The translations under genes and the position numbers were made by a program. Shown one piece after another: positions 2,465-52,308 of a DNA stretch of 64,000 nucleotides (within the stretch, counting starts at the first letter, position 1; each line of letters opens with the position of its first letter). Source of the stretch: Candidatus Enterousia sp. (GTDB lineage: Bacteria; Pseudomonadota; Alphaproteobacteria; Rs-D84); the NCBI GenBank assembly GCA_045646605.1, contig JAZRLA010000015.1:137054-201053 (forward strand). The letters are read 5' to 3'. A model generated the notes under the pieces. The model saw only the letters and a program-made list of their open reading frames with translations, had not been told where the DNA came from and ran no database searches.

Positions 2465-2537
2465 TTAAAGTCTCCTTGGATAAATCTTGACAAAATAATA
2501 AGGGATTTTTTAAACCATGGCAAGGAAAAAGTTTTGG

Positions 2538-2625
2538 GGTGGTTAGTGTTAGTGGCTAGTGGTTAGTAAACTCTGGAACTTATCCATAATTGTGAACAAA
2601 ATCCAAAGGTTACTAACCACTACTC
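2538..2625. repeat. palindromic repeat element A, copy with a divergent core
   Basis: Left arm GGTTAGTGTTAGTGGCTAGTGGTTAGT and right arm TACTAACCACTAC flank a CTCTGGAA...core. Overlaps the dnaB stop codon. Confidence 0.55.
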
Positions 2626-4287
2626 AAATTCATCGGGAATTTCATCGATGTCAATCGGCGTTGGGGCGTCAGTTGGCCCAGGAACCGGCGATACATCGGG
2701 TGCAAATTCAACCGTGCGACCCGCCATTTCATTAAGGTTATCGAACAAACTATATTCAGCCAAGAACGCAACCGTAACCGTATCTGTTCGACCGTGACGA
2801 TTTTTACCAATGATAATATCAGCCTTGCCCTTGGCCTTTTCAAGTCGGTTTTGCCATGAATCAACAGACTTTTCACTTGGTGTATTTGAAAGTCGCCGCG
2901 ATGGATCACGGTTTTGCAGATAATATTCTTCGCGATATGTGAACATAACAATGTCTGCATCTTGTTCAATAGAGCCCGATTCACGCAAATCGGCAAGTTG
3001 TGGCCGTTTATCATCGCGATTTTCCACACTGCGCGACAATTGTGAAAGTGCGATAACCGGAACACTAAATTCCTTGGCCATCATTTTAAGACCACGCGTG
3101 ATTTCGGATAATTCCTGAACACGATTATCACTGCGTTTACCCCCCGGCAAAGTTAGTAACTGCAAGTAATCAATAACGATAAGCGCAATTCCGTTATATT
3201 TCCGGGCAAGCCGTCGCACGCGTGTGCGAATCATCGGCAAAGACATCCCTGGGGTATCATCAATAAACAATGGAATTCGTCCGATTGCATCGGAAAATTG
3301 CGCCATTTTAAGGAAATCTTCATCAGTTAAAGAACCTTCACGCATCGCGGACGATGGAATTCGTGCCTGGGATGACAAAACACGTGCCGCCAATTCGGAT
3401 GCACCCATCTCTAAGCTGAAAAACGCAACGGCACCTTTATACTGTTCATTCGCGCGACCAGAAAAAATCGCATTTGCCGCATTAAACGCAATATTCATGG
3501 CAAGTGTGGTTTTACCCATACCCGGGCGTCCCGCGATGATAAGTAAATTTGATTTATGCAATCCACTTATTGCACGGTCCAAATCGGTAAGCCCAGTGGT
3601 CAGCCCAGAAAGTTTCCCATCGGCTTTGTACGCGATTTCTGCTTCGGCCAGTGCATCCTTTAACGCATTTGCAATTGGTACGACATCACGCGACGCATCC
3701 CCGGTCATTGCAAGATTGAATAACTTTTGTTCGGCGGATTCGATTTGTGATGATACCGGGTTATCAAGGTCTTCAACAAATGCCGCATCGGTAACGGATT
3801 GCCCAAAATCAATAAGTTCGCGCCGCACCGCATTTTCGTGAACAATTCGCCCATACTGTTCAACATTCACGACCGTTGCGCCGGCGCCAGCCAATTGAGT
3901 CAGGTATTCAACCCCACCAACCGATTCCAATGTTCCCTGTTGATCAAGGTAATTTTTTGCCGTGATTATATCAAAAGGAATTCCGGCGGCAAATTGGCGC
4001 AGGGCAAGTTTATATATTTCCTGGTGCGCGGGATGTGAAAAATCTTCGGGTCGCAGAAATTCGGAAATTTTTTCCAATGCGCGATTTTTCATCAAAACCG
4101 CGGCAAGGACGGCCTGTTCGGCCTCTAAATTAGTCGGTAAAGTTTTGGGAGTAAAGTCCATGCCAAACATAGTATACGAAAAAAATGTTTTTTCAACGCC
4201 TTTTTTATCGGGATATGCGGAACTTAAAATTCCAATAGTCGACAAAGATGGAACCGCGGCATGGCCGGCGGTTTTTCCCATAGACAA
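2620..4287 (-). CDS. dnaB: replicative DNA helicase DnaB
   Basis: DnaB N-terminal domain followed by RecA-like core with 'GRPGMGKTTLA' Walker A and 'IVIDYLQLL'. True start may be the internal 'MFGMDF'. Acidic C-terminal tail. Confidence 0.85.
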   Translation of the reverse strand: MSMGKTAGHAAVPSLSTIGILSSAYPDKKGVEKTFFSYTMFGMDFTPKTLPTNLEAEQAVLAAVLMKNRALEKISEFLRPEDFSHPAHQEIYKLALRQFAAGIPFDIITAKNYLDQQGTLESVGGVEYLTQLAGAGATVVNVEQYGRIVHENAVRRELIDFGQSVTDAAFVEDLDNPVSSQIESAEQKLFNLAMTGDASRDVVPIANALKDALAEAEIAYKADGKLSGLTTGLTDLDRAISGLHKSNLLIIAGRPGMGKTTLAMNIAFNAANAIFSGRANEQYKGAVAFFSLEMGASELAARVLSSQARIPSSAMREGSLTDEDFLKMAQFSDAIGRIPLFIDDTPGMSLPMIRTRVRRLARKYNGIALIVIDYLQLLTLPGGKRSDNRVQELSEITRGLKMMAKEFSVPVIALSQLSRSVENRDDKRPQLADLRESGSIEQDADIVMFTYREEYYLQNRDPSRRLSNTPSEKSVDSWQNRLEKAKGKADIIIGKNRHGRTDTVTVAFLAEYSLFDNLNEMAGRTVEFAPDVSPVPGPTDAPTPIDIDEIPDEFE

Positions 4288-5008
4288 AATAGAAAAAATT
4301 CGTAAAACGGTCGGAGAAAGGTATTTTTCAGCACAAATGATGTTGCAATTTGTTGCGCCTGATAAAATACGCCTCGATCCGGGTGGTATAAAGTTTTATG
4401 ATACTGACTTTGATCCGCACAGTTGCCGAATTGGTGATACACCAATAACTGGGGCAACAATTTATTGGGACCCATCGGGCGGTCGACGAAATTCTGATAA
4501 CAGTGTTTGTGTCATTATTTATCGCGATGACCGAACGCACCGGGTTTTTATCCACGATATAATTTATATCGTTGTCCCAGACGCAATTCAATATCCGCTT
4601 GCCTATCAATGTGAAAAAGTTCTTGGGTTTGTGCGTGCGCATCGGCAAAGGGCGCTCTGTCTTGAAACAAATGGAATCGGTGCGGCATTGCCGGAAATAA
4701 TGCGCGAAACAATTTCACGCGCTGGTTACGAAATACAAATACGTCCAATAACCAACAGCCGTCGCAAAGAAGACAGAATTTTGGACGCGATTGAACCATT
4801 GCTTACGACCGGACGTTTTTACGCAAATCGACGTATAACCCAGACACCATTTATATCAGAAATGTTGGCATGGACCCCGATTGGCAGTTCCGAACATGAT
4901 GACGGATTGGACGCAGTCGCGGGTGCAATTTTATGTTCGGCCACACCGATGCGGCCGATTGGAACAAATGTTCACAATTACATTGCGAACACAGATTTTA
5001 AACTTTAA
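4160..5008 (+). CDS. terminase large subunit, C-terminal nuclease fragment
   Basis: Continues the terminase after the about 3.4-kb opposite-strand insertion. The six-frame ORF 3962-5008 has a spurious N-terminal extension that overlaps dnaB antisense. Confidence 0.5.
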   Translation: MPNIVYEKNVFSTPFLSGYAELKIPIVDKDGTAAWPAVFPIDKIEKIRKTVGERYFSAQMMLQFVAPDKIRLDPGGIKFYDTDFDPHSCRIGDTPITGATIYWDPSGGRRNSDNSVCVIIYRDDRTHRVFIHDIIYIVVPDAIQYPLAYQCEKVLGFVRAHRQRALCLETNGIGAALPEIMRETISRAGYEIQIRPITNSRRKEDRILDAIEPLLTTGRFYANRRITQTPFISEMLAWTPIGSSEHDDGLDAVAGAILCSATPMRPIGTNVHNYIANTDFKL

Positions 5009-5023
5009 CCAAAAGGAAAGAAA

Positions 5024-6250
5024 ATGAAATATGACTTACAAAAAATGTATTCACGTGCATTAAACCTGCGCGAACCATGGCTGAAACGCTGGTCGGATGC
5101 GCGCCGTTATACAATGCCAACAACCGATGAAGAAATCGCGACATTGTTTGATGGAACGGCGGCGGATGCGGCGGACAATCTTTCGGCATGTATGTATTCA
5201 TTGCTAACGCCACCGGAATCATTGTGGTTGAACCTTGTCCCTGAATCCGAAGAATCACCGGACCCGGTTGCGGCAACTATGGCATTACGTTCGAATCTTA
5301 ATGAATCTAACTTTTATACAACTGTTCATCAATGTTATATGGATTTGGTAACAATGGGAACGGCGTGTTTGTTTATGTCTGAATCACCAATTGGTGCGGC
5401 AAGTGCATTTAACTTTACGGCAATCCCGATGACGGACATCGCGATTTTGCCGAATGCGGTATTTCATACTGCAACCGTTACCGCCCAAGATGTCGCGCGC
5501 CGTTATCCTGAATGGACGCCACCACGTGCAATCGTTGACGCAATAAAGCAAAATCCTGAATATCAATTACGCCTGGTCCAGGCATTAATTGATACCGAAT
5601 TCACTGCATGGATAGATGCGGGTGGCAATATTGAAAACAATATTGTTGCGACCGGCACATTCGAAACAAACCCATACATCATATTCCGTTGGGCGTTGGC
5701 GAGTGGCGAACTTTACGGTCGCGGTCCAATTCTGCGTGCATTACCCGATATCAAAACTGCAAATAAAGTTGTAGAATTGGTCCTTAAAAATGCGACAATC
5801 GCGGTCAGTGGTATATGGCAAGCCGATGATGACGGGGTCATAAACCTTAGTAACATCAATTTAACACCTGGTGCAATAATTCCCAAAGCGGTGGGCAGCA
5901 CCGGCCTAACGCCACTTGCGACGGGCGCGAACTTTGATGTGTCACAGATAATTTTGAAAGACCTGCGTGAACGCATCCGCCACACAATGCTTGCGGACAG
6001 AATCGGCACGCTTTCGGACAAAGAAATGACCGCAACGGAAATACTTGCGCGGAACGCGGACATGCTGCGCATATTGGGCGCGACATATGGACGATTGCTG
6101 CACGAATTTATCCGCCCGCTTTGCGACCGCGGACTTCAAATTTTGGCGCGGCGCGGCGTAATCGACAAAATATCACTGCACAGTGATGCGGAATTAAAAT
6201 ACATCGCACCGATTGCACAAATGGTCGCGGAAAACGGCACATTGATATAG
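5024..6250 (+). CDS. phage portal (head-to-tail connector) protein
   Basis: 408-aa ORF directly downstream of the terminase with an RBS. Synteny and overall portal-like composition support the call. Confidence 0.5.
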   Translation: MKYDLQKMYSRALNLREPWLKRWSDARRYTMPTTDEEIATLFDGTAADAADNLSACMYSLLTPPESLWLNLVPESEESPDPVAATMALRSNLNESNFYTTVHQCYMDLVTMGTACLFMSESPIGAASAFNFTAIPMTDIAILPNAVFHTATVTAQDVARRYPEWTPPRAIVDAIKQNPEYQLRLVQALIDTEFTAWIDAGGNIENNIVATGTFETNPYIIFRWALASGELYGRGPILRALPDIKTANKVVELVLKNATIAVSGIWQADDDGVINLSNINLTPGAIIPKAVGSTGLTPLATGANFDVSQIILKDLRERIRHTMLADRIGTLSDKEMTATEILARNADMLRILGATYGRLLHEFIRPLCDRGLQILARRGVIDKISLHSDAELKYIAPIAQMVAENGTLI

Positions 6251-6259
6251 GGGGCGCGC

Positions 6260-6466
6260 ATGGAAAAAATCGCACACGAATACGCCCGCACTTTTGCAGG
6301 GCCGTCCGGTCGGGCGGTCATTGACCACCTGCGCCGGATAACAATCGAAAGGGTGTTGGGGCCGCACGCAACGGACGCAGAATTGCGAACGCTGGAGGGT
6401 GCGCGCGCAATCGTGCATCAAATTGAAACACTAATTGAACGGGGACGGAACAATGCCAAAATCTAA
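6260..6466 (+). CDS. hypothetical small protein in the phage-like cluster
   Basis: 68-aa ORF placed where GTA/phage head clusters carry a small ORF after the portal. Confidence 0.25.
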   Translation: MEKIAHEYARTFAGPSGRAVIDHLRRITIERVLGPHATDAELRTLEGARAIVHQIETLIERGRNNAKI

Positions 6467-6710
6467 TGGATTCGCAAACATCATCGACACATTGCGCAGT
6501 GGTTGGTTCCTTATCGCGTTTATTGCCGGCATGATATATTGGGTCGCGCGCCAAGATAACGCCCTGGTCGAACTTGACCGATTGACGACACGCATAACGA
6601 CACTTGAAAACCGGACAACGATTTTGGAAACCGGAATAGGGCAATTACAACTAAAAATCGACGGCATCAAAGAAGACCTGACCATCATCAAAACAGCGGT
6701 GATAAAGTAG
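6435..6710 (+). CDS. small membrane protein with coiled coil (holin-like or unknown)
   Basis: One TM helix ('WFLIAFIAGMIYWV') followed by a heptad-like region. Confidence 0.3.
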   Translation: MNGDGTMPKSNGFANIIDTLRSGWFLIAFIAGMIYWVARQDNALVELDRLTTRITTLENRTTILETGIGQLQLKIDGIKEDLTIIKTAVIK

Positions 6711-6726
6711 TGTTAGTGGTAAGTGT

Positions 6727-6814
6727 AAGTGGTTAGTATACTCTGGAATAATTTCGCAATTACGGATTGATTCCAGAAGACGACTAACCACTAGAAAGCG
6801 TTTTTTGAATTTAA
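6727..6814. repeat. palindromic repeat element A (canonical copy)
   Basis: Arms GTGTTAGTGGTAAGTGTAAGTGGTTAGT and ACTAACCACTAG flank the palindromic core TTCTGGAATAATTTCGCAATTACGGATTGATTCCAGAA. Confidence 0.7.
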
Positions 6815-6835
6815 TTTGAAAAATTTAACAACATA

Positions 6836-6864
6836 TTGACAATGTGTGTTTTCTGTGCTATTAT
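6836..6864 (+). promoter_or_regulatory. near-consensus sigma70 promoter for the 6897 gene
   Basis: TTGACA, 17-nt spacer, TATTAT. An AAAGAG RBS precedes the ATG at 6897. Confidence 0.5.
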
Positions 6865-6896
6865 ATGGTCGTACAACAAAATAAAAAGAGTAAAAC

Positions 6897-8183
6897 ATGA
6901 CAGAATTAAATAAAAAATTCGGCTTTACAGAAGAACAGTTAGAACAGTTTGATGACGATCTTAGAAATGGCGGAAGAGACGGTAGAAGAGCACAAATACC
7001 CAAAGAGGTTTTGGCGATACTGGGTGATTATTACGTGCAATTGATTGAAAAATCCGTTCAGGCGACCGAAAAAGGTATGTCACACGAGGATGACATAGCT
7101 TCAGTAAGTCACCCTTTGTGCCATATTTACGAAGATGGTTTGATGGCCAATGAATTATATCGCCCGATTGGTGATATTTTGTTAGATAAATTGATTGAAA
7201 AGGCCGAACAGGGGTATTACAGCCATGCAAATCGTTCAATAGATGGTTATTGGCGCAGTGTGAAAGATAATAAAGATGCCCAGAAAGGATTGAAAACGAT
7301 ATTAGAAAAACATCCTAACTATGCATTTGGGCAGAAATATTTATCATACATGAATGGTGCCAGTCCCGAAGACGAAATGGCGATGATACAAAGTTATATT
7401 GAAAACCCAGATATGTATTTTGTTACCACAATTATGGTCGATATTGATGGCACACTTATTCGAAACGGTAAAGCCAATGATAATTTGATAGATTCAATTA
7501 TTGGTCGTAAAAATATCGCCATTTATACGGGTGGGGACCCCGTGAGCCAAAAGAAAGTTCTTGTAAAGGCAATCGCAGAAAAAATTTTGGAAAAATTCCC
7601 TTTGATAAAGGAAGATTTTTCTGTGGATACTATTGTAAATATTTATTCCCAAGATAATGAACAGAATATAGCATTGCGTGAGAAGTTATCACGCACACTA
7701 AGAGACAAAATCTGGGGTTTGTTTTTCAACCAAGAACCTGGCAATAAAGTTGATGCCCATATGATAGATGATATGGCGAACCGGGCTAAACGTATTTTGG
7801 AATTTCTAAATCGTTTAACGGCAACAGGTGGTGATCAGATTAAAATTTATCCAAAACAGGCATTCGCGCAGGAAAATATTTGTTTGGCCGACACTGTGAT
7901 TGATGATACCCAACCAGCCGCCCAGGGAATGAAAAGTCTTTATTCAGCGTGTCTGACCCCAGGTGAATCCCCGTTTTGGGTGAAAGAGATCAGGGGTGTC
8001 GAAAGGGGAATATCCAAAGAACGCGAAATAACGGCAGAGCAAGCTTTTGCTATGTATCAGCAAAAATGTAAAGAAAACATGATTGCGGGCGCTAAACAAG
8101 TTGATAAGCTAAGTGCTACCGAACAGAAAGCAACGGCTTTTTCTGATTCGTGTAAAACCGATGTTAAAAAAACTACTAGATAG
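6897..8183 (+). CDS. hypothetical protein with a central HAD-like phosphatase motif
   Basis: 'FVTTIMVDIDGTLI' matches HAD motif I (hhhhDxDGTL). Large flanking regions are unknown. Bracketed by A elements. Confidence 0.45.
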   Translation: MTELNKKFGFTEEQLEQFDDDLRNGGRDGRRAQIPKEVLAILGDYYVQLIEKSVQATEKGMSHEDDIASVSHPLCHIYEDGLMANELYRPIGDILLDKLIEKAEQGYYSHANRSIDGYWRSVKDNKDAQKGLKTILEKHPNYAFGQKYLSYMNGASPEDEMAMIQSYIENPDMYFVTTIMVDIDGTLIRNGKANDNLIDSIIGRKNIAIYTGGDPVSQKKVLVKAIAEKILEKFPLIKEDFSVDTIVNIYSQDNEQNIALREKLSRTLRDKIWGLFFNQEPGNKVDAHMIDDMANRAKRILEFLNRLTATGGDQIKIYPKQAFAQENICLADTVIDDTQPAAQGMKSLYSACLTPGESPFWVKEIRGVERGISKEREITAEQAFAMYQQKCKENMIAGAKQVDKLSATEQKATAFSDSCKTDVKKTTR

Positions 8184-8196
8184 TACGAAACCAGAA

Positions 8197-8371
8197 TAGT
8201 GGGTAGTGTAAGTGATTAGTGTTAGTGCGGGCGCGTTTGCGCCCGTTTTTGCGACACCCCGGCCTGCGGCCACCCCTCTAGCCAGATGGGAACTTTGCTT
8301 TCTGGAATAATTTCACAATCACGGATTGATTCCAGAAACTACTAACCACTTCCCACTAACACTAACCACTA
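8197..8371. repeat. palindromic repeat element A with embedded hairpin and element B
   Basis: Contains the A arms and core, the hairpin GCGGGCGCGTTTGCGCCCG, and a B copy at about 8253-8295 (GACACCCCGGCCTGCGGCCACCCCTCTAGCCAGATGGGAACTT). Confidence 0.7.
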
Positions 8372-8710
8372 AAACGCATTTTTCGTCCAATCTATGTGCC
8401 ATCCGTGGACGATAATAACATCAAACCGCGCGTCACCACACCAACGCCGCTGCAGCAAAAATGTTTCCGCCGCCAATCGCAGCCGCCTTTGTTGCGCGGA
8501 CGTAATCGCACCCCACGCCGCCATCACATTTTTGCGCTTTTTTACTTCGACAAAGATAATAAGTTTTCCGCGTTTTGCAATTATATCAATCTCTGCGCGC
8601 CCCGTATTTCGCCCGGTCGTATAACGCCGATGCAAAATCCGAAATCCATGCAATACCAAAAAAGCGCATGCAAAAAATTCTGAAAAAATTCCGGTCTTGT
8701 ATGAATCCAT
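8369..8710 (-). CDS. yraN: YraN-family (UPF0102) endonuclease
   Basis: 113 aa with 'GRAEIDIIAKRGKLIIFVEVKKRK', typical of YraN. Confidence 0.65.
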   Translation of the reverse strand: MDSYKTGIFSEFFACAFLVLHGFRILHRRYTTGRNTGRAEIDIIAKRGKLIIFVEVKKRKNVMAAWGAITSAQQRRLRLAAETFLLQRRWCGDARFDVIIVHGWHIDWTKNAF

Positions 8711-8712
8711 AT

Positions 8713-9513
8713 CTAAAACGCATAGGGTTCGGCGGCAAAATTATCCTGTGATTGCTGGACATTAAGGGCGCTATCCTCCGCATGCTTGCCACAGTCAATC
8801 AATTCCAATTCCCCCGAATACGCCGTCATCATTGGGTCGAACGAATTATCTGAACTTGCCCACCGCGTTGCGCCCGCATTCGGCACGCCATATTTATCAA
8901 CAACATTTTGCCACCAATACATAGTTTTTTTGTCGCGTTGATTTTCAAACTTTTCCGCATCGCCTTCCATTTCATCGGTGTCGTTATGATAGACGATTTT
9001 CCACACGACATTATCGGTTGCGTTGCTTGTAAAGAACACATCAATTGTTTCGCCCGTGACACCGCGCACCAGGTGCAATTCCGCCGCATACAATACGCCA
9101 CGATTCCGCGCAAGTGAATTTATACATTTTTCCAATGCCGCCGGCGCATAAATTTTCATCCGTCGACATTCGTAATCAAGGTTATATTTCCAATCGGGGT
9201 GCATCGAATACACAACACTATTTTTTGGTCGTTCGGCATAAAGGCCATCGGCGGCCACAATAAATTTAACCGCATCAAAATCCATCCCCAGCATGATACC
9301 CGCAATATCAAAATCCGCAACCGGCGATACCGCCGCACCGGCGTTTAGTGACACGGTATCCAAACTGCACTCAATATCACCCGTGTCCGGCGTTTCGATA
9401 TAGTAATCATCAAAATTGATATTATCGTCTGCCAAAACATCATCAAACTCGTCCGCGCGCGCGCCGACCGATAACAAACAAACAAAAATTCCAACAATAA
9501 TTTTTTTCATCAC
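8713..9513 (-). CDS. secreted protein, possibly outer-membrane associated
   Basis: Signal peptide 'MMKKIIVGIFVCLLSVGARA'. C-terminal residue is aromatic ('...EPYAF'). Confidence 0.4.
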   Translation of the reverse strand: MMKKIIVGIFVCLLSVGARADEFDDVLADDNINFDDYYIETPDTGDIECSLDTVSLNAGAAVSPVADFDIAGIMLGMDFDAVKFIVAADGLYAERPKNSVVYSMHPDWKYNLDYECRRMKIYAPAALEKCINSLARNRGVLYAAELHLVRGVTGETIDVFFTSNATDNVVWKIVYHNDTDEMEGDAEKFENQRDKKTMYWWQNVVDKYGVPNAGATRWASSDNSFDPMMTAYSGELELIDCGKHAEDSALNVQQSQDNFAAEPYAF

Positions 9514-10169
9514 TATTTTTCTTCCACCAAGATCCGTTGTACATTGAACACAAATACCAACGCCGGATCAACACCGCGTTTCAATGCACCATGAATATCC
9601 CCATCTTTGACATCGCCGATTGCCCCAACCCAATTGTCACCACCCAAGTCAAGGTACATCGTTCCGCGCGTTATCTTTGGGCTTTCCGTCATGTCATTTG
9701 GTTTATACCATGTTTTCAGTTCATAATCAACCCGCCAATAATTACTTGCCGCCGGGCGATAGATTCCATTAAACACGGTCACCGTCCGTCGCGCCCCGGC
9801 TGTAACCAAACTTTCAATTTCCGGCAATTCGTTTTGCCGCCAATATTCCAACGCCGCCGCGCCCGACATTATGCGCAGTGCCGAATTTCGCGCGGTGCGC
9901 CGTTCAATATCCGCATCATCCGGCACAACATAAAAATATTCCGTCACATATTTTTGAATCAACCAATCGCGCAATTTGCGTTTTCCAACCTCCGCCCAAG
10001 AATGCGGCATTCCGGGCAAATCATTTGATTGAATACTGGTGCGCAAGAATCGCGGTTCCACGGCAAACTTTTCGGAAGTGTCATAGATGGACGCAGCAAC
10101 ATAAATCGCACCAAAGACCATAATCATGGTCGCAAGCCCGAATAAAAATCCGATCAGTTTCTTCATCAC
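9513..10169 (-). CDS. bitopic inner-membrane protein with periplasmic NTF2-like domain (VirB8-like or Tim44-like candidate)
   Basis: N-terminal TM helix. C-terminal domain is paralogous to the next ORF. Four-base overlap suggests an operon. Confidence 0.4.
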   Translation of the reverse strand: MMKKLIGFLFGLATMIMVFGAIYVAASIYDTSEKFAVEPRFLRTSIQSNDLPGMPHSWAEVGKRKLRDWLIQKYVTEYFYVVPDDADIERRTARNSALRIMSGAAALEYWRQNELPEIESLVTAGARRTVTVFNGIYRPAASNYWRVDYELKTWYKPNDMTESPKITRGTMYLDLGGDNWVGAIGDVKDGDIHGALKRGVDPALVFVFNVQRILVEEK

Positions 10170-10864
10170 TGTTCCCTGTACGCGTTAAATTCCGCCACGT
10201 AAAACCCAAGTGTTTGCGGGTACCTTTCCGCATTACGTGCGATTTTCACATACGCAATCACATCAAAATCGCCGTTCAGGTTTGACCGCACCGATGTCCG
10301 AACAATCCAGGTGCCACCATCTTTGGTTATTTCGCCATTGGGCATAACGCTAATCTTTTTTGTGTCGACATTCCAACGTTGGCCCACACCCTCATACGAA
10401 CGATACATCGGCAAAACTTTTTCGGCAAAGTAACGGAACATATTGTCACCCGCCATACAATACAAATCACAACCAACATCCGATTCAAAGGTATTACTTA
10501 TCCGGTTGACACAATCAGCGTTACGATCACACTGTGCCCAATTCTTGGAATTTAACGCCGGATCATCGGAAATAGTGAACCATTTTTTTGTAAAAACCCC
10601 TGCCAATGCCCGCTGTGCCGAATCATAATACGGCACAATGATATTTTTGCGAACCTGGCCCACCAATTGCCAATTCCCGCGCATTCCGTCAACATAAATC
10701 ACATACGGACTGACGGTGCGGCTGTTTTGCAACCACGGTATCGCGATGCAACATGCGATGGTCAAAAAGAACGCGACCATCACCCACACGCCAAAGGTGC
10801 GTGAAATCGCAATCCGTTTTCCTGCGGAAAATGCGGGCGTATCAAAATCTTCTGGGTAATCCAA
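10166..10864 (-). CDS. bitopic inner-membrane protein, paralog of the 9513-10169 ORF (VirB8-like candidate)
   Basis: Short cytoplasmic N-terminus, TM helix ('VWVMVAFFLTIACCIAIPWL'), periplasmic domain with a shared 'W.VD...P.G...G.W...VK' pattern. Confidence 0.4.
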   Translation of the reverse strand: MDYPEDFDTPAFSAGKRIAISRTFGVWVMVAFFLTIACCIAIPWLQNSRTVSPYVIYVDGMRGNWQLVGQVRKNIIVPYYDSAQRALAGVFTKKWFTISDDPALNSKNWAQCDRNADCVNRISNTFESDVGCDLYCMAGDNMFRYFAEKVLPMYRSYEGVGQRWNVDTKKISVMPNGEITKDGGTWIVRTSVRSNLNGDFDVIAYVKIARNAERYPQTLGFYVAEFNAYREQ

Positions 10865-42881: not shown

Positions 42882-44813
42882 ATGCTGCACACATCCGACT
42901 TTGATTTTGAATTACCCCCGGAACTTATCGCATCGCACCCACTTGCGCGTCGTGACGCATCCCGTATGTTGGTGGTGGAACCAAGTTCCCCTCCGTTGGA
43001 TGGGTGCCCGCAGGGCGGGGTGGGGGCGAAAGTTCCCCTCCTGTGGAGGGGTGGCCGAAGGCCGGGGTGGTCTTTTGAAGCGTGTAAATTCGGCGCAAAC
43101 TTCAAATTGCCTTTTAATAAAAATTTGGTGGAACGTGCCCGCAAACTTCGTAAAGCAGGTAGTTTACCAGAAGCGTTATTATGGAAAGAAATTAAAGGCA
43201 AGCAAGTAAATGGTTTAAATTTTGATAGGCAAAAAGTTATCGGAAATTACATAGTGGACTTCTTTTGCCCAGAATTGGGGATTGTTATAGAAATAGACGA
43301 TAAAACGCACGACTTTAAAGCTGAATATGACGAAAAAAGAGAAAAATATTTGCGCAGTCTTGGGCTGGAAATAATACACATCAGTGCCAAAGATGTTTTA
43401 GAAAATCCGGCATCCGTTGCGTTGTGGTTAAAGACCGCCCCGGCCTTCGGCCACCCCTCCACAGGAGGGGAACTTACCCTCTCCGACAAACATATACGCA
43501 ATTTTTTGGATTACCTGCGCCCTGGTGATGTGGTTGTGTTTAACAATTCGCGGGTGATTCCGGCGCGTTTTGATGCGGACGGTTATGAAATCACATTGCA
43601 TACCGCGGTTGATGACAAAAATTGGTGGGGCCTGTGTAAAAAATTCAATAAAATAAAAGTTGGCGATACACTTACCATGGCGGACGGCACAACAATTACG
43701 GTTGTGGACAAAGACGATGAAAGTGGCCTTTTGCTGCACTTTAATTGCGATAATGTATTTGATGTCTTGAACCGTGTTGGAAAGATGCCATTGCCTCCAT
43801 ACATGAAACGCGATGCCGAAATCGCCGATCAAACGCGCTATCAAACGGTTTATGCGGACCCACTTGGGTCAATGGCGGCACCGACGGCGGGTTTACACTT
43901 TACCGATGAATTGATGCGTGAAATAGAGGCACGTGGCGCGAAAATCGTGAAAATCACACTGCATGTCGGCGCGGGAACTTGGATGCCGGTCAAGACCGAA
44001 AATCTGTCCGAACATAAAATGCACAGTGAATGGTGCCAAATCACACCGCAGCAAGCCGGAATCATAAACGCCGCAACGCGTGTAATCGCCGTTGGCACAA
44101 CAACGCTCCGCACATTGGAATCCGCCGCGTCAAGTTCCCCTCCTTTGGAGGGGTGGCGGGTAGCACCCGCCGGGGTGGTTAGAGACACCGCAAACTATCG
44201 CACATTACCATTTAACCCAAAATTAAAAGAGCGTGCACGCGAATTGCGGCATGCGGGCAGTTTGCCCGAGGCATTATTGTGGAACGAAATCAAAAATAAA
44301 AAATTAAATGGTCTGGATTTTGATAGACAGAAAATAATTGGAAATTACATCGTTGATTTCTTTTGTGCGTCAAAATTTTTAGTTATCGAGGTTGACGATA
44401 AAACCCATGACACAAAAGTTGATTATGATAGGCAGCGTGATGAATATCTAAAATCTTTAAATCTTGCAGTGATACATATCCAGGCCAAAGATGTCTTGCA
44501 AGACCCTCACGGTGTTTTTAACTGGCTGTCTAACCACCCCGGCACTTCGTGCCACCCCTCCAACGGAGGGGAACGTGCGCGTGTCGCACCAATCTGCCAA
44601 ACCACAGATATCTTTATTACACCCGGTTACAAATTCCGCGTGGTTGATGTGTTGCTGACGAATTTTCATTTGCCACGGTCAACACTTTTTATGTTGGTGT
44701 CGGCGTTTTCGGGATTCGCCGAAATGAAGGCGGCATACGCCCACGCCATCGCCGAAAAATACAGATTCTTTAGTTATGGCGATTGCTGTTTGTTATTTAG
44801 AAAGGATAATTAA
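42882..44813 (+). CDS. queA: S-adenosylmethionine:tRNA ribosyltransferase-isomerase QueA with two in-frame insertions
   Basis: QueA N-terminus, middle and C-terminus are separated by two insertions of about 150-167 aa. Each encodes a DUF559-like domain. Total 643 aa against about 340 typical. Confidence 0.8.
   Translation: MLHTSDFDFELPPELIASHPLARRDASRMLVVEPSSPPLDGCPQGGVGAKVPLLWRGGRRPGWSFEACKFGANFKLPFNKNLVERARKLRKAGSLPEALLWKEIKGKQVNGLNFDRQKVIGNYIVDFFCPELGIVIEIDDKTHDFKAEYDEKREKYLRSLGLEIIHISAKDVLENPASVALWLKTAPAFGHPSTGGELTLSDKHIRNFLDYLRPGDVVVFNNSRVIPARFDADGYEITLHTAVDDKNWWGLCKKFNKIKVGDTLTMADGTTITVVDKDDESGLLLHFNCDNVFDVLNRVGKMPLPPYMKRDAEIADQTRYQTVYADPLGSMAAPTAGLHFTDELMREIEARGAKIVKITLHVGAGTWMPVKTENLSEHKMHSEWCQITPQQAGIINAATRVIAVGTTTLRTLESAASSSPPLEGWRVAPAGVVRDTANYRTLPFNPKLKERARELRHAGSLPEALLWNEIKNKKLNGLDFDRQKIIGNYIVDFFCASKFLVIEVDDKTHDTKVDYDRQRDEYLKSLNLAVIHIQAKDVLQDPHGVFNWLSNHPGTSCHPSNGGERARVAPICQTTDIFITPGYKFRVVDVLLTNFHLPRSTLFMLVSAFSGFAEMKAAYAHAIAEKYRFFSYGDCCLLFRKDN
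43031..43475 (+). mobile_element. TIR-flanked DUF559 endonuclease-domain cassette, in-frame in queA (copy 1)
   Basis: 42-bp inverted B elements sit at 43031-43072 and 43434-43475. Interior encodes a DUF559 domain ('GNYIVDFFCPELGIVIEIDDKTH'). An extra degenerate B half-copy lies at 42984-43027. Confidence 0.6.
44133..44576 (+). mobile_element. TIR-flanked DUF559 endonuclease-domain cassette, in-frame in queA (copy 2)
   Basis: Inverted B-like elements at 44133-44178 and 44535-44576. Second DUF559 domain ('GNYIVDFFCASKFLVIEVDDKTH'). Same ~444-bp size as copy 1. Confidence 0.6.
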
Positions 44814-47113: not shown

Positions 47114-48550
47114 ATGCGAAAGTCGGTGTCGCAAAAAAACAAACTTAAAAAAATTTTATTTGGTATCGCAACACTTGGATTGGTGACATTTGTCGGAACC
47201 AAAGCCGGAAAATTAGTTAATAACAGAAATAGCGATAAAGAAGAAAAAGAAGAAATAATCAAAGAACCGGAAAAACCAACAGATTTTACTTCGTTGGCGA
47301 TGGCGCATTATTATCCTGAATTGTTTGTCGCGGTCGAAGAATTAGAGACATATCGCGCAACACCAAAAAAGCACACCAAAGAAAAACGCTATACATATTG
47401 GAACGGTTTGACATGGGTTTATACGGTGAATAAAAACGGCACAATTTCCCAGCACCCGTGTACCGGACAATGGAAAAATATGGCGGCGGGTTTCAGTCGT
47501 GAACAATGTGAAGAACAATTTCGTTTGCACTTGCAATTCGAAACATTTAAATCACTTGAAATGGCAATCAGTGGTAAAAGCAATATAAATCATCAACAGA
47601 TAATGGGCTTGTTAATGTTGGGTTATCAATTGCCCGGAAAAATTGCCCCGATTGCGGTTCATTTGAATAAAGCAACAAATACACAACAAATAATGGACGC
47701 TTTCAAATACAGTTTGCCCGAAAACACATTATGGCGCGAAGGAACACTTAAACGTCGTTGGTGGTGTGGGGCATACGCCGCGGGTTTGATAACGGTTGAT
47801 GATTTGCTGGGTTTGAAAAAAGATTCCTTTTCAAAAATATCTTTGGCGAAAGTTGCAACCGGAATTAAAAGAAATTCAAAAGGCGAAGTGTTATCAATTG
47901 AACATTTCAAATTTGATACGGCAACTGTGCAATATGCGTTGAATACTGCCCGCACAAAAGGGAACAACCCAATCGTTAGGGATGTATTAAATCAAACCGC
48001 CGGTGGTCGTGCTGTGATAAAGGCCGTTGAATCTGGGACACAGATTGATTTTATTATCGCAAAATCGAATTTTGATCAAACAGATTATGCCAAAGCGGTA
48101 ACATCTTTCAGGTCCGGCGATTACGAATCCGCGGCGGCGGGGTTTAAGAAACTGTTAGAAACAAATCCGAATGATGCATTGCTTTGGAATGATTTGGCCG
48201 CGTCTTACAATAACCTTGGCAAATATGATTTGGCACTTGAATGCACAGGCAAAATTTTCAAAGAAATTGGGGATAGGTCACAATATGCGGCCGCGTACTA
48301 TAATGCCGGCGTCGCACGCGAAAATTTGGGGCAATATAAATCCGCATTGGCTAATTATCAATACGCGAAAAAGAGTGGTAATAAATCGCCGGATGTTGAT
48401 ACGGCAATCGCCCGTGTGCAGAAAATAATGGCAAAATCCGCCAAAATGCGGGCTTATAATGCCGGAACACAAAAAGTTGGTGCCACTATGCAACACCACA
48501 AATTGCAAAATATCCGTACATTGCCCAAGACGGGCGCGCGACGCGCATAA
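47114..48550 (+). CDS. membrane-anchored TPR-repeat protein
   Basis: N-terminal TM helix. C-terminal TPR repeats ('LLWNDLAASYNNLGKYDLALE'). Confidence 0.45.
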   Translation: MRKSVSQKNKLKKILFGIATLGLVTFVGTKAGKLVNNRNSDKEEKEEIIKEPEKPTDFTSLAMAHYYPELFVAVEELETYRATPKKHTKEKRYTYWNGLTWVYTVNKNGTISQHPCTGQWKNMAAGFSREQCEEQFRLHLQFETFKSLEMAISGKSNINHQQIMGLLMLGYQLPGKIAPIAVHLNKATNTQQIMDAFKYSLPENTLWREGTLKRRWWCGAYAAGLITVDDLLGLKKDSFSKISLAKVATGIKRNSKGEVLSIEHFKFDTATVQYALNTARTKGNNPIVRDVLNQTAGGRAVIKAVESGTQIDFIIAKSNFDQTDYAKAVTSFRSGDYESAAAGFKKLLETNPNDALLWNDLAASYNNLGKYDLALECTGKIFKEIGDRSQYAAAYYNAGVARENLGQYKSALANYQYAKKSGNKSPDVDTAIARVQKIMAKSAKMRAYNAGTQKVGATMQHHKLQNIRTLPKTGARRA

Positions 48551-48621: not shown

Positions 48622-48698
48622 GCGAGCGTAGCTCAGTTGGCTAGAGCGCAACCTTGCCAAGGTTGAGGTCGAGGGTTCGAGCCCCTTTGCTCGCACCA
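48622..48698 (+). tRNA. tRNA-Gly (GCC)
   Basis: Cloverleaf with anticodon loop TTGCCAA. CCA encoded. Confidence 0.9.
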
Positions 48699-49034
48699 AA
48701 GTTTTTTATTAGAAATCCGGACGTTTGCGCCGGATTTTTTGTTTTGTGTCGAAAAATACCGATGCAACGAACCCCTTATAAATCTAACATTTTTTGCTTT
48801 TGGCACACTTGAAAAATAAAGGATGAAAACCTATGTTTAAGAAGTGTAAAGCAAACTGTCAAGCAAACTGATAAAAGAGCAGGTAAAAAGCGGCGGAAAT
48901 CGCGGCGGAACAAAGTGGAGACGGCAAGCAAATATCTATGGGGTAATGCGTTTTATTAGACTATCGAATCGCCGTTTCAAGACGGTAAAAAGGGAAAACG
49001 AATTGTTTTACGCCCGCAATATCGTTCAAAATTC

Positions 49035-49562
49035 TTAATCTGGGTGATAAAGGTAAAATTTATCTTGTTGATGCGTGGTTTTACTCCATAATTCCCCAGA
49101 TTCCTTTTCTGACATATTTGAAAAATCGATTCTTTCTTTAAGGACAAATACTCTGATATTGCCATTTTTTATTTCTTGCATAATGTCAATTTCAATAATT
49201 CTTTTAATTTTCTTGTCTGCCAAGCAATAATAATCCGTACCAGTATCATGCATGAACCCGTCGGAATCCAATTCATATACATACGCTTTTTCTGGAATAT
49301 TTGGTTTGAGTCTTTCGACATATAACGCAGAACTGCCCACGGGGGATTTCCAACCACTGCCTATCAATCTCATGACGGCGTAAAGGCGCGCGTGTGCAAA
49401 ATCAGACGTTGCGAACACAGCGGTTATTTCCGTTTTCATATGATCTATATAGCCCGGTGACATCTGAATAAATCCGGTGTCTATTTTCACGCGAGAACCA
49501 TGATAAAGGATTTCTGGTAACTTATCATTCATGCGAATGAGTGTACCAAAAAATAATGACAA
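49035..49562 (-). CDS. hypothetical protein (island cargo)
   Basis: 175 aa. 'ILYHGSRV' N-terminal motif. No family assigned. Confidence 0.35.
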   Translation of the reverse strand: MSLFFGTLIRMNDKLPEILYHGSRVKIDTGFIQMSPGYIDHMKTEITAVFATSDFAHARLYAVMRLIGSGWKSPVGSSALYVERLKPNIPEKAYVYELDSDGFMHDTGTDYYCLADKKIKRIIEIDIMQEIKNGNIRVFVLKERIDFSNMSEKESGELWSKTTHQQDKFYLYHPD

Positions 49563-49596
49563 TTCAAGGAATTTATAGGGGCATAAATCTGGTTTT

Positions 49597-50190
49597 TTGT
49601 TGACAAATTCGTTTAATATAATATACTTTGGGCGACAAAAAGCAGAAAAAGGTAAAAATGTGACAAATAACGATAATCATGAAAAACAGGAAATACAATC
49701 CGATGACCCGATAATCCAAAAATGCTTGGATATTATTCGTAATGAAAAGACCATAGTCATAAAACCTTTTCAAAAACACGGCGACTTTTATGTAGCGTAT
49801 ATAAAAAATGGGGAACTTTTCAGCTTTGTTCCAGAATACAGCATATTGGGCAAAACGTGGAAACATACCATTAGAATAAATAATGATAAGCAACCAACCG
49901 TTTTTTATGGAAAGCGATCGTCAGATTTAATAGAATTGCATAAATTATGTGACGAAAAATATTTTAAAAGAAAAGAAGCCCAAAAAGAATGGAGGCGAAA
50001 ATATTATCCAATAATTTTAGCTTCTGCGCTTGGTGTCGGTATGCTCGTTTTTGGTTGGTCCAGAATTCATAAAAAAGATAATGTTGATAAACAGGTTGAA
50101 TCGTATGAAAAAACTTTACCGGGGTATTTGGAACAAAAACAGACGGTCGAACACTATCGCGACAGTTTAATGCACGCCAAAAGACGGTAA
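49597..50190 (+). CDS. hypothetical protein with C-terminal TM helix (island cargo)
   Basis: ORF with one predicted TM helix ('YPIILASALGVGMLVFGW'). Confidence 0.35.
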   Translation: MLTNSFNIIYFGRQKAEKGKNVTNNDNHEKQEIQSDDPIIQKCLDIIRNEKTIVIKPFQKHGDFYVAYIKNGELFSFVPEYSILGKTWKHTIRINNDKQPTVFYGKRSSDLIELHKLCDEKYFKRKEAQKEWRRKYYPIILASALGVGMLVFGWSRIHKKDNVDKQVESYEKTLPGYLEQKQTVEHYRDSLMHAKRR

Positions 50191-50209
50191 AGAAAGAAAA
50201 GCAATTTTT

Positions 50210-50371
50210 TTGCGACCATTTTCGGCACAATCAAAGAAATTAAAACTATCACGAAATACTAAAAAGATTAAAAACTGGTTAGATACAGGATTCACAAAAT
50301 ACCGCATTGCAAAAATGATGTCTGTATCACCATCAACTGTTTCGAACTTTATTCAACGGATGGGGGGGTGA
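50210..50371 (+). pseudogene. HTH-domain fragment, possibly a transposase or excisionase N-terminal remnant
   Basis: No ATG start (TTG at 50210). Encodes 'TGFTKYRIAKMMSVSPSTVSNFIQR', a typical IS/recombinase HTH. Ends in a G7 homopolymer. Confidence 0.3.
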
Positions 50372-50393
50372 TGCACCATATGGCGTTTTCGAT

Positions 50394-51419
50394 TTAATTT
50401 CTGCGGTTCAAGACACTGATAACAACTTGCTTTACCGTTTCCATCTCGGCGGGTTTGCTTTCTGCGATAAGCAAAGTCAATGCGAATAAGGTTGCGCCAT
50501 CAATCAGTGTTTGACCGTTTTCGTCATACAACATTTTGTTCCGGTCCAAGAAATACAGGAAACAACTGGCCCCTATGCGTTTGTTCCCGTCAACAAAACT
50601 GTGGTTTTTGACAATCAGGTAAAGTAATGTCGCGGCTTTTTCTTCCAACGATGGATAGAATTCTTTGCCGTCAAAGGTTTGATAAATCTGTCCCACAGAA
50701 CTGTAAAAACCTTGGTCTTTTTGCTTTGCGAAAACATCACTGGCAAAACTGCCCTTCATTTGGTCAACCACAGACAAAAATTCTTCAGCACCAATCACAA
50801 CCGCGTCGTTTTTGGTTCTGCCAGTTCGGTCCAGTGTTTTATGGTCAAAGTCGTCCAACAAATTTAACCCGCGCACAAAATCATTCAAAACGCGCGAAAT
50901 CTCTTGGACTTGGTCCATATTATCAGTTTGATTTTCAATGCTGCGCGTCATTAAATCCAAAGTTTTTTGCAAAGTCAGCAACTTTGATTTTTGTTCAGCG
51001 ATGACGCGTTGGTTTATAACATAACCCTGGACCAGGTAATCTTTCAGCGTTTTCGTTGCCCAGATACGGAATTGAGTCGCAGTTTTTGATTTTACCCGAT
51101 ATCCAACCGACAAAATCATGTCCAGGTTATAGAATTTTATATGACGGGTTATCTTGCGCTTGCCTTCTTGTTGAACTTGTGCAATTTTGGCACAAGTTGA
51201 ATTTTCTGCCAATTCTCCGTCTTTAATAATGTTTCGTATGTGCTTTACTATCGCCGTTCTGTCTGTATTAAACAATGCAGACATCTGGTCTTGGGTCAAC
51301 CAGACGGTATCGTCCTGAATCTTGACATCAATCCGTGTTTGACCATTTTCAGCGGTATAAATCGCAATTTGATTATTTATATCGTTCATATCAAATCCTT
51401 TGGTGGGATTATAACCCAA
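50394..51419 (-). CDS. RhuM-family N-terminal domain fused to a Fic/Doc-family domain
   Basis: N-terminus 'IAIYTAENGQTRIDVKIQDDTVWLTQDQMSALF' is RhuM-like. C-terminus 'HSFVDGNKRIGAS' matches the Doc/Fic motif HxFx(D)GNKR. Confidence 0.7.
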   Translation of the reverse strand: MGYNPTKGFDMNDINNQIAIYTAENGQTRIDVKIQDDTVWLTQDQMSALFNTDRTAIVKHIRNIIKDGELAENSTCAKIAQVQQEGKRKITRHIKFYNLDMILSVGYRVKSKTATQFRIWATKTLKDYLVQGYVINQRVIAEQKSKLLTLQKTLDLMTRSIENQTDNMDQVQEISRVLNDFVRGLNLLDDFDHKTLDRTGRTKNDAVVIGAEEFLSVVDQMKGSFASDVFAKQKDQGFYSSVGQIYQTFDGKEFYPSLEEKAATLLYLIVKNHSFVDGNKRIGASCFLYFLDRNKMLYDENGQTLIDGATLFALTLLIAESKPAEMETVKQVVISVLNRRN

Positions 51420-51600
51420 AACACCGAGTTGTGAAATAAAAAAATCGTGTACTTTTGCCGAAAATCGTGTTATTTTATAAAAGTGCCAAGCAAAGTGTCA
51501 GGCAAACTGATAAAAAACAGGTAAAAAGCGGCAAAAAGGGTTGAAAAAACGGCTAAAAAAAGTCAAATGCGTTCCCCTTTGCTCGCACCAGAAATTTTAA

Positions 51601-51626
51601 AAACCACCATTTGGTGGTTTTTTCTA
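51601..51626. terminator. terminator hairpin
   Basis: AAAACCACC-ATT-TGGTGGTTTTTT. Confidence 0.5.
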
Positions 51627-51681: not shown

Positions 51682-52308
51682 ATGAAAAAATTCATCGGTA
51701 TTTTATTTGCGTTCGTTGCGCTTGTTGCGTGCACTGTTAAACTAAGCGCGATATTAAATGTTTCTGATATTCTATCGGACCAGAACAAGGCGTTGATGGT
51801 AGATGTTCGTATCTTGGTTATGAATTGCGATGAAGATTCAATTGCGGAAATCCAAACCGCGTTTGAAAAACGAAAAATTTCTGCGCGATTCAACAAGTGC
51901 GGTTCCGAAGATATGTTTAATGAATACGCGGGTTTTTCTCTGCCGATCGCAATAGTTCATGATTTATCTAAACCGATCCCGGTTGAAAATGGAATATATT
52001 TCTATGTAGCGGATGATACATTGTCGCTAAGGACATCTGATAATTTTGCATCAATGTTGGCTTCGGATTCTGATTTTGACGATGGTATTGAAATTTCATC
52101 GATTGAATTTTCACTAACGAACGATGGCATGTCGGATTTTGTTATAAAGCCGTGGTTGGTGTTTGTTGATGAACGCCCTGTGTTTGATAGTGAAATTACG
52201 ATTCCTTCGTTTAGCAAGGTTTCAATAAAATTGCCAGATGTCGCGAATAAATTGCTAGAAAAATCGAATGCCGAATATCCGATATTCAGGTTCATGCGTA
52301 ACAATTAA
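51682..52308 (+). CDS. hypothetical lipoprotein
   Basis: Signal peptide with 'LVAC' lipobox. Confidence 0.4.
   Translation: MKKFIGILFAFVALVACTVKLSAILNVSDILSDQNKALMVDVRILVMNCDEDSIAEIQTAFEKRKISARFNKCGSEDMFNEYAGFSLPIAIVHDLSKPIPVENGIYFYVADDTLSLRTSDNFASMLASDSDFDDGIEISSIEFSLTNDGMSDFVIKPWLVFVDERPVFDSEITIPSFSKVSIKLPDVANKLLEKSNAEYPIFRFMRNN

Follow-up and report, generated by a model that had tools for sequence, protein, structure and literature searches.

cis-Mobilizable elements (CIMEs) are decayed derivatives of integrative and conjugative elements and of integrative and mobilizable elements, and were first described in streptococci. The present analysis concerns a 64 kb stretch of DNA, referred to below as the window, from a Candidatus Enterousia sp. 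assembly (GenBank GCA_045646605.1, contig JAZRLA010000015.1, positions 137 054–201 053), in which a 2.9 kb islet, window positions 48699–51573, lies at the 3' end of a tRNA-Gly(GCC) gene. With a probability of about 0.75, this islet is the decayed, CIME-like remnant of a small island inserted there by an integrase. Like the CIMEs (PMC5704250; PMC6323972), it keeps the attL and attR sites of a site-specific integration intact at the 3' end of a gene (exact 17 bp cores, with an empty site in locus L001), has lost its integration and excision genes (an integrase stub and a resolvase tail are left, with no recombinase domain in the islet ORFs), and has no transfer genes, its four ORFs matching no relaxase, coupling protein or type IV secretion system family. 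Its relatives show remnants of tandem accretion at the site, and help-driven movement is suggested by two loci, L011 and L020. It differs from CIMEs in its much smaller size, in its occurrence in uncultured gut Alphaproteobacteria, and in keeping a recognizable integrase N-terminal stub that is unusually conserved across the family.

The islet also resembles the P4-like and lambda-like islands that tyrosine integrases direct to tRNA genes. Shared features are a duplicated core that restores the tRNA, low G+C content, toxin- or defence-like cargo, an integrase gene that adjoins the tRNA and reads away from it, and an empty site in a relative; an intact case is found in locus L002. The differences are that the islet integrase is reduced to a broken stub, and that the related full-length integrases of L002 and L011 are unusually long (568–580 aa) and match Phage_integrase at just 26–36 bits.

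Insertion and att sites

The intact tRNA-Gly gene ends in 17 nt, CCCCTTTGCTCGCACCA, that are repeated exactly at the far end of the islet (Table 1). This 17-mer occurs exactly twice in the window, with no third copy even when two mismatches are allowed; 0.02 matches are expected by chance, and none of 100 shuffled sequences reached two. The 2.9 kb between the cores is AT-rich, with a G+C content of 32–42 % as against 44–52 % outside. In L001, an alphaproteobacterial metagenome-assembled genome (MAG) from goat omasum, tRNA-Gly is followed directly by GAATTTTTAAAAACCACCATTTGGTGGTTTTTT, the terminator that in the window follows attR, and the two sequences are 92.9 % identical over 56 bp. L001 therefore represents the empty site, and window positions 48699–51573 are thus an insertion with its edges at the 17-mer, placed in the tRNA 3' end and flanked by a direct repeat that restores the tRNA gene. 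L001 and L002 were found in a genome collection through the protein encoded upstream of the tRNA (87 % and 79 % identity, respectively).

An original prediction, made from the letters of the window, had already taken the downstream copy of the tRNA end as the mark of an attL/attR pair, a reading that would fail if the 17 bp were common by chance or through a repeat family, and had proposed looking for an empty tRNA-Gly site in relatives. The exact repeat, its two copies in the window, the exact boundary at the empty site of L001 and the other islets with the same core all uphold it. Excision would be predicted to give the attP junction ...AAATGCGTT-CCCCTTTGCTCGCACCA-AAGTTTTTTATTAGAAATCC... and a restored attB in which the tRNA is followed by GAAATTTTAAAAACCACC.

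Remnants of the recombinases

No intact tyrosine integrase gene lies next to the att site; found there instead is a DUF6538 stub broken after 12 codons. From the ATG at 48833 these codons (MFKKCKANCQAN) lead to a stop. A 65 bp insertion (48868–48932) in the stub is flanked by CAAGCAAA and is nearly identical to the right arm of the islet over its first ~30 bp, and the continuation beyond it is frame-shifted, with an in-frame stop (YLWGNAFY*TIESPFQDGKKGKR). This combination of insertion, frame shift and stop makes 48833–~49030 a dead integrase stub. It was detected by tblastn with the 66 aa stub of locus L017. In L017, L018 and L022 the stub is uninterrupted, and the same start runs on as MFKKCKANCQANDNLY(I/L)R..VFYYMVELPRQDGKRRYFIKSLHTK..., which matches DUF6538. 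The stub also resembles the N-terminus of the full-length L011 integrase (E 6e-5) and that of the L002 integrase. Pfam scans of 47 window ORFs gave no recombinase domain, and when the integrases of L002 and L011 and the resolvase of L002 were compared with the window by tblastn, all matches had E>1. The earlier statement that the bracketed DNA holds no integrase is thus right for a working enzyme, and had missed the dead 5' stub.

Stubs of this kind, 44–108 aa long, occur at three tRNA sites, Gly-GCC, Gly-CCC and Thr-TGT (for example L017, L022, L030, L033 and L034); the intact form in L022 has 105 aa. All 20 database clusters related to the stub (proteins P0217–P0236) fall in this size range and none is full length, in a homologue search that works through shared 5-residue words; the cluster tails part from one another at various positions. 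In P0230 the stub is fused to the last residues of a resolvase, making a cargo-less mini-islet. Over the shared codons dN/dS is 0.03–0.31, with dS up to about 0.9–1.6, and the stubs are under purifying selection across the family. The stand-alone arm-binding domain may be kept because it has a function, but selection acting on a full-length master gene outside the sample would explain the values equally well. The window stub is dead whichever of these holds.

The second remnant is the 3' end of a small serine recombinase (resolvase) gene. The ORF at 50210–50371 (53 aa, ending in ATGGGGGGGTGA) had been described in the original prediction as a start-less helix–turn–helix (HTH) fragment ending in a G7 tract. 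That description can be refined: the fragment represents the last 51 codons of a resolvase, with 74.5 % identity to residues 146–196 of the intact 197 aa enzyme of L022 (E 8e-26; window 50212–50364 matches L022 9984–10136 at the nucleotide level), and its best NCBIfam match is the Mpi invertase C-terminus. No Resolvase Pfam match, and so no N-terminal catalytic domain, is present in the remnant. By comparison with L022, the catalytic half of the gene is replaced in the window by two orphan genes. These two genes are bracketed, in the window and in L011, by a 37 bp imperfect direct repeat (78 %; 48979–49015 and 50181–50217), of which the left copy encodes QDGKKGKRIVLRP within the integrase stub and the right copy opens the resolvase remnant (KDGKERKAIFLRP). 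This repeat may mark how cargo entered a fusion of stub and resolvase.

Arms of the islet

A direct repeat lies near the two ends of the islet: 48832–48876 matches 51471–51515 at 82 %, and 48874–48899 matches 51512–51537 at 85 % (91 % over 46 bp by blastn), in just these two places within the window. A gapped local alignment extends the match to 48753–48952 and 51418–51573, the right copy stopping exactly at the core. Part of the repeat length is due to the right-arm-like patch of 65 bp inside the stub. The roughly 55 bp repeat of the original prediction is therefore real by both alignment and blastn. From their recurrence in related loci, the two copies can be identified as the left and right arms that an islet family has conserved.

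In the left arm, an element-borne replacement terminator (hairpin ATCCGG...CCGGAT and T-run, 48715–48740) is followed, upstream of the integrase start, by a block resembling a promoter and ribosome-binding site (RBS), TTGGCACACTTGAAAAATAAAGGATGAAAACCT, which is kept in L011, L017, L018, L022 and L034 and thus conserved across three different tRNA sites. The left repeat copy overlaps the integrase start codon. The right copy (51471–51537) holds the 12-mers GTGCCAAGCAAA and GTGTCAGGCAAA, and when the right arms of eight loci are aligned (A3), the block AAAAGTG..AAGCAAA.TGTCAGGCAAACTGATAAAAA, ~64 bp from the core, does not vary. Blastn matches to this arm were obtained in L012, L013, L015, L017, L018, L021 and L022. 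Both arms thus carry paired tandem 12-mers with the consensus (G/C)TG(T/C)(A/C)A(A/G)GCAAA. Their position and conservation suggest, with low to moderate confidence, that an integrase would bind them as arm-type sites; once the islet is excised, the pairs would lie on either side of the attP core, which is the usual placing of such sites. The original prediction had offered arm-type sites or traces of tandem integrations. The first fits the window better and the second less well; tandem att remnants do occur in relatives. A model in which two tandem elements meet in the left repeat as a P–(core deleted)–P' junction, drawn from the shared TTTTATTAGA, was dropped because that sequence is coding sequence of the integrase stub (GNAFY* matching RNDVFYY).

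Table 1. Positions of the islet components and of other features in the window
Feature	Position	Strand	Evidence or description
tRNA-Gly(GCC), intact, integration target	48622–48698	+	ARAGORN; Rfam tRNA 65.9 bits
attL core, final 17 nt of tRNA	48682–48698	+	Exact 17-mer, two copies in window
Left (P') arm	48699–48832	+	Read from sequence; differs from native terminator in L001
Left copy of direct repeat	48832–48899	+	Tandem 12-mers GTGTAAAGCAAA and CTGTCAAGCAAA, overlapping integrase codons 4–12
Dead 5' stub of tyrosine-integrase gene, N-terminal DUF6538 domain	48833–49034	+	tblastn, six-frame reading, DUF6538 matches
Cargo 1, 166 aa orphan with HGS motif	49035–49535	-	53 metagenomic homologues, none with a Pfam domain
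Cargo 2, 176 aa orphan membrane-anchored protein	49660–50190	+	Alignment A4; AlphaFold2 model, pLDDT 79
3' remnant of small serine recombinase (resolvase) gene	50185–50371	+	C-terminal HTH alone, no catalytic domain, G7 end
Cargo 3, RhuM-N and Doc-type Fic protein, 331 aa	50394–51389	-	Virulence_RhuM 7e-26, Fic 2e-10
Right (P) arm	51418–51573	+	Conserved in eight related islets; ends exactly at core
attR core, exact second copy of tRNA 3' end	51574–51590	+	CCCCTTTGCTCGCACCA
Native sequence 3' of tRNA (B'), with original terminator AAAAACCACCATTTGGTGGTTTTT	51591–51625	+	Terminator scan; L001 comparison
Double-HTH_3 protein	1454–2464	-	
Terminase RNaseH-like fragment	3962–5008	+	
T7-type portal	5024–6250	+	9e-80
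VirB8-like protein	10166–10864	-	

Related islets

Members of the family were collected by a scan of metagenome contigs with the repeat motif and by look-ups of the stub protein; L014, L016 and L019, also returned by the scan, were rejected as chance matches to the 22-mer used as search pattern. Islets bracketed by the tRNA-Gly(GCC) core are found in L015, L017, L018 and L022, and in part in L012, L013 and L021. The right arm, of which about 135 bp ending at the core are shared, is common to all, and the left arm (core, hairpin terminator, promoter/RBS-like block and stub) to most. The cargo differs between members and is often defence-related (restriction-modification systems, phospholipase D (PLD) nucleases). 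L015 (2.0 kb) carries an ankyrin protein, L017/L018 (about 2 kb) a metallophosphoesterase, and L022/L024 (3.4 kb, from pig gut and with the same alaS synteny as the window) two proteins of no assigned function, one of them bearing a lipoprotein-like signal sequence, together with an intact resolvase whose stop codon abuts the right arm. L013, of which more than 9.9 kb is available, has restriction-modification genes and a PLD nuclease, and the partial L012 and L021 share the right arm. No trace of conjugative or mobilization functions was seen in any family member, and the stub shows descent from an integrase-bearing element. Stub-bearing islets with other cargo also lie at tRNA-Gly(CCC) (L030–L032) and tRNA-Thr(TGT) (L034–L036).

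The island that occupies the same tRNA in L002, a Candidatus Enterousia sp. MAG, is another one: it encodes a 568 aa tyrosine integrase reading away from the tRNA, a 1642 aa Type ISP restriction enzyme, a SocA/Panacea protein and a resolvase.

A filler module of ~112 bp is duplicated beside att cores in several relatives (L022 10294–10405, L015 389–480, L017 4087–4310), and is also seen at the end of L013 and beside the distal core in L018 and L021. It consists of a terminator and GGCAAAGGGGCGAGTTGCGAGGCGAGG...CCGAAGTACGTTGCTCGCACCA, so that parts of the tRNA-Gly 3' end recur in it in both inverted and direct orientation, and may be a miniature element that mimics tRNA ends or a scar of accretion. 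It is absent from the window.

The same decayed islet is found at a second tRNA gene. Window 48683–51415 is 91.7 % identical to L011 3267–6007, and L011 (ENA) and L020 (JGI) share with the window the broken stub, the 65 bp insertion and the cargo. In L011 the islet abuts an exact 20 bp copy of the tRNA-Gly(CCC) 3' end, ATTCCCTTCGCCCGCACCAA, which is present at 3100–3119 and 3264–3283, the two copies being separated by 144 bp of filler. The GCC and CCC cores differ at three of 17 positions, and since all three are of the host type at the L011 attL, the crossover would have fallen in the shared CGCACCA(A). Because the scars of decay are common to the window and L011/L020, the islet appears to have moved after losing its integrase. 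These comparisons suggest, with moderate confidence, that the move was carried out by the integrase of an adjoining or co-resident element, or by one acting in trans, as in the CIME scenario.

Proposed history and alternative explanations

The proposed history is as follows. A tyrosine integrase would have inserted a small island site-specifically into the 3' end of tRNA-Gly(GCC), duplicating 17 bp as attL and attR and supplying the tRNA with a replacement terminator. Both recombinases would then have been lost, the integrase gene being reduced to a broken 5' stub and the resolvase gene to its last 51 codons. The att cores and arms would have survived, leaving a CIME-like islet presumably unable to move alone, with the RhuM/Doc gene, the 166 aa gene and the membrane-anchored orphan as live content. 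At a later stage, the islet would have been moved to the tRNA-Gly(CCC) site by an integrase encoded elsewhere. The insertion, the att sites, the integrase and resolvase remnants and the membership of the family can, jointly, be asserted with high confidence.

Several points weigh against this history. L011 has neither the right arm nor a second core on the right side of the islet and contains the 144 bp filler, and these features imply a history more complex than a single clean integration; a search for a tmRNA gene as a possible right-hand target in L011 was negative. Neither an excised circle nor an attP junction was seen. The conservation of the 22-mer is in part a matter of ascertainment, as the 22-mer was itself the search pattern; the independently found L022 keeps 21 of its 22 bases. 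Lastly, searches of 5.8 billion proteins and of viral contigs returned no cognate full-length integrase that begins with this N-terminus, and the helper integrase is therefore hypothetical.

The best placed of the alternatives, itself unlikely, sees the islet as an immobile scar at a recombination hotspot. A single ancient integration would have been followed by no further site-specific movement since decay, DNA uptake bringing in cargo that is swapped by homologous recombination between the arms or between the flanking tRNA and alaS. Conserved arms around wholly different cargo in L015, L017/L018, L022 and the window are in keeping with this, as are cargo-gene nucleotide homologies that end at gene ends in other contexts, stubs truncated at many points, as repeated replacement would give, the failure to find a helper integrase in the proteins and viral contigs searched, and a neighbouring slot, between attR and alaS, that also varies without att sites. 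A host-type core with the islet behind it at another tRNA, however, cannot arise by homologous recombination between arms, and the same decayed islet does abut an exact copy of the tRNA-Gly(CCC) 3' end, with further stub-bearing islets at tRNA-Thr(TGT).

A somewhat more doubtful proposal gives the stub a present role: a domesticated stub mini-protein and the paired 12-mers of the two arms might form a maintained cargo-exchange platform at Gly-GCC, Gly-CCC and Thr-TGT. If so, defence and toxin genes would be swapped without a resident integrase, and the mini-gene of the window would have just died. It is less probable still that the stub persists as an independent arm-binding (DUF6538) mini-protein with a regulatory role at the locus, such as blocking or directing integrations by occupying arm sites, in an islet family maintained for cargo exchange and with a window copy only recently dead. 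The uniformly short lengths of the 20 stub-related clusters, the low dN/dS, the promoter/RBS-like block kept at three tRNA sites and the overlap of the tandem 12-mers with the stub's own start would all be expected of such a protein. Against it, truncation points and tails differ as erosion predicts, and neither in the window nor in L011/L020, where the stub is interrupted after 12 codons, can it act. Purifying selection could, moreover, date from a full-length ancestor or an unsampled master element, and the search that returned short homologues relies on shared 5-residue words.

Insertion in a tRNA 3' end, with an identity block beside a gene for an integrase arm-binding domain, is the pattern of tyrosine integrases. 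The 17 bp identity block next to an integrase-type gene start fits this pattern, and makes it very improbable that a small serine recombinase is the integration and excision enzyme of the family, with the arm repeats as its recombination sites. Intact resolvases are indeed found at the right end of L022/L024, abutting the right arm, as well as in L033 and L002, and the arm repeats flank the cargo in direct orientation; just an HTH tail is left in the window, however, the 12-mers are tandem direct repeats and not the inverted half-sites bound by serine recombinase dimers, and L015, L017 and L018 have the arms with no resolvase. Finally, a chance match or dispersed repeat, for which the short length of the 17-mer alone would speak, is refuted by its two copies against 0.02 expected, by the boundary in L001 exactly at the repeat and by the same bracket in four other islets.

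Cargo genes

Fusions of RhuM and Doc have been proposed to act as toxins of multilayer defence loci (PMC3710099). The third cargo gene of the islet encodes such a protein; as called, its ORF is 341 aa, the true start being probably at 51389. Pfam, NCBIfam and PADLOC matches agree on this assignment, which the original prediction had also made. The Fic domain (PF02661) scores 41.7 bits against a cut-off of 24, while TIGR01550 (DOC_P1), at 36.4 bits, falls just below its cut-off of 38.65. The Doc-type active-site motif is HxFx(D/N)(A/G)NKR, and the translation carries HSFVDGNKR. The protein matches the PADLOC profile PDC-S23 at full length (E 2e-128; residues 1–329 against 1–325 of 327), its match among PHROGs is a Doc-like toxin, and the family is very large and already named 'virulence protein RhuM/Fic/DOC family protein'.

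In its RhuM N-domain, Fic fold, HxFxDGNKR motif, full-length PDC-S23 match and mobile or defence context, the protein thus resembles the described RhuM/Fic-DOC fusions (PMC3710099). It differs from them in that its gene has no adjacent restriction-modification or PrrC-like partner and no Phd-like antitoxin: no small co-oriented ORF lies beside it, and an N-terminal RhuM domain is present instead. PDC-S23 is a candidate defence system in PADLOC, and the protein is probably a toxin or an effector of abortive-infection type. The gene sits between the resolvase stop and the right arm, which in L022 abut directly, and by that comparison it is inserted there.

A 90 % identical RhuM/Doc gene is present in L003 (3754–8993) with four further genes of no assigned function (109, 673, 239 and 150 aa). 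This cluster lies inside the ribosomal protein operon, between rpsK and rpoA, and the same layout is seen in several metagenomes. Nucleotide homology between L003 and the window ends at the ends of the RhuM/Doc gene.

The other two ORFs had been described as unknown proteins, one with a 'YHGS' motif. The proposed HMM searches of the cargo, which found Virulence_RhuM and Fic on the one ORF, gave no Pfam match for either of these two, and LYHGS can be read in one of them, the 166 aa protein. The latter has no match in Pfam, NCBIfam, PADLOC, PHROGs or PDB sequences. In an alignment of 40 sequences (A1), Y19, H20, G21, S22, F49, A50, Y60, Y95 and E96 are invariant, and in an AlphaFold2 model (predicted local distance difference test score, pLDDT, 92) their positions on the strands fit the H-Y-[ED] pattern of ADP-ribosyltransferases. 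Fold searches gave weak matches: in the PDB to Arr entries (probability 0.57–0.82, template modelling (TM) score 0.33–0.42), and in BFVD to a phage 'Ms Rifampin ADP-ribosyl transferase' (probability 0.99, TM score 0.61 by target).

As in Arr, the protein is small, has HG[ST] on the first strand, an aromatic-rich strand then a helix, and an acidic residue after the Y-x-Y strand, and Arr entries are its best named fold matches; it differs in the lack of detectable sequence-profile similarity, in TM scores of 0.33–0.61 and in a high root-mean-square deviation. The model thus hints, with low to moderate confidence, at a minimal H-Y-E/D (Arr-like) ADP-ribosyltransferase.

In L007–L010 (e.g. L007 1397–3136), 87 % homologues of this protein are followed by a co-oriented gene of 365–372 aa with no assigned function. 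That partner is missing in the window, where homology stops 3 bp after the stop codon of the 166 aa gene. The 166 aa gene may therefore be the first of a two-gene module, present alone in the window. A 167 aa protein of L022, similar in size and position, was rejected as its counterpart; it is an unrelated lipoprotein.

The 176 aa protein consists of a small alpha/beta N-domain, a long helix that includes a transmembrane segment, and a conserved C-terminal YEKTLPGYLEQKQ..YRDSL motif. Among 1.84 billion representatives it has 43 relatives, just four of which cover the N-domain. A fold search gave no meaningful match.

Genomic context

Directly upstream of the tRNA, a 478 aa tetratricopeptide repeat (TPR) protein (47114–48550, +) is encoded, and L001 and L002 have it as well. 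L022, though otherwise syntenic, lacks it, and there tRNA-Gly comes immediately after the coiled-coil membrane protein. The stretch from the native tRNA terminator to alaS is itself variable and AT-rich, being occupied by a DUF7424 lipoprotein gene in the window (51682–52308, +), by a GT2 glycosyltransferase gene in L001 and by nothing in L022; no att-like repeat was found around 51682–52308. Exact-protein look-ups of the two flanking genes found nothing on record.

Further upstream, QueA (42882–44813, +; 643 aa) combines Queuosine_synth (5.6e-110) with a DUF559/REase_MTES_1575 endonuclease-like domain at about residues 447–549 (1.8e-53). Since the L022 orthologue is 346 aa, queA of the window seems to have received the endonuclease domain by insertion or fusion. 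A set of phage-like or gene transfer agent-like genes lies at window 1454–10864, near dnaB (2620–4287, -), and its members are listed in Table 1.

Significance

An element of this kind is ordinary and already known; the detail is unusually clear here. The locus offers a clear example of how a tRNA-linked island may decay to an integrase-less, att-bounded islet that would still shuttle defence and toxin cargo. Its host lineage, uncultured gut Alphaproteobacteria related to Candidatus Enterousia, has had next to none of its mobile elements described. The PDC-S23 RhuM/Doc candidate gains a natural setting from the locus, and an orphan family is flagged as possible minimal ADP-ribosyltransferases. 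The att cores, the arms and the candidate arm sites form a set of experimental handles. The one feature possibly leading somewhere new is the family-wide conservation of integrase N-terminal stubs for which no full-length gene was found.

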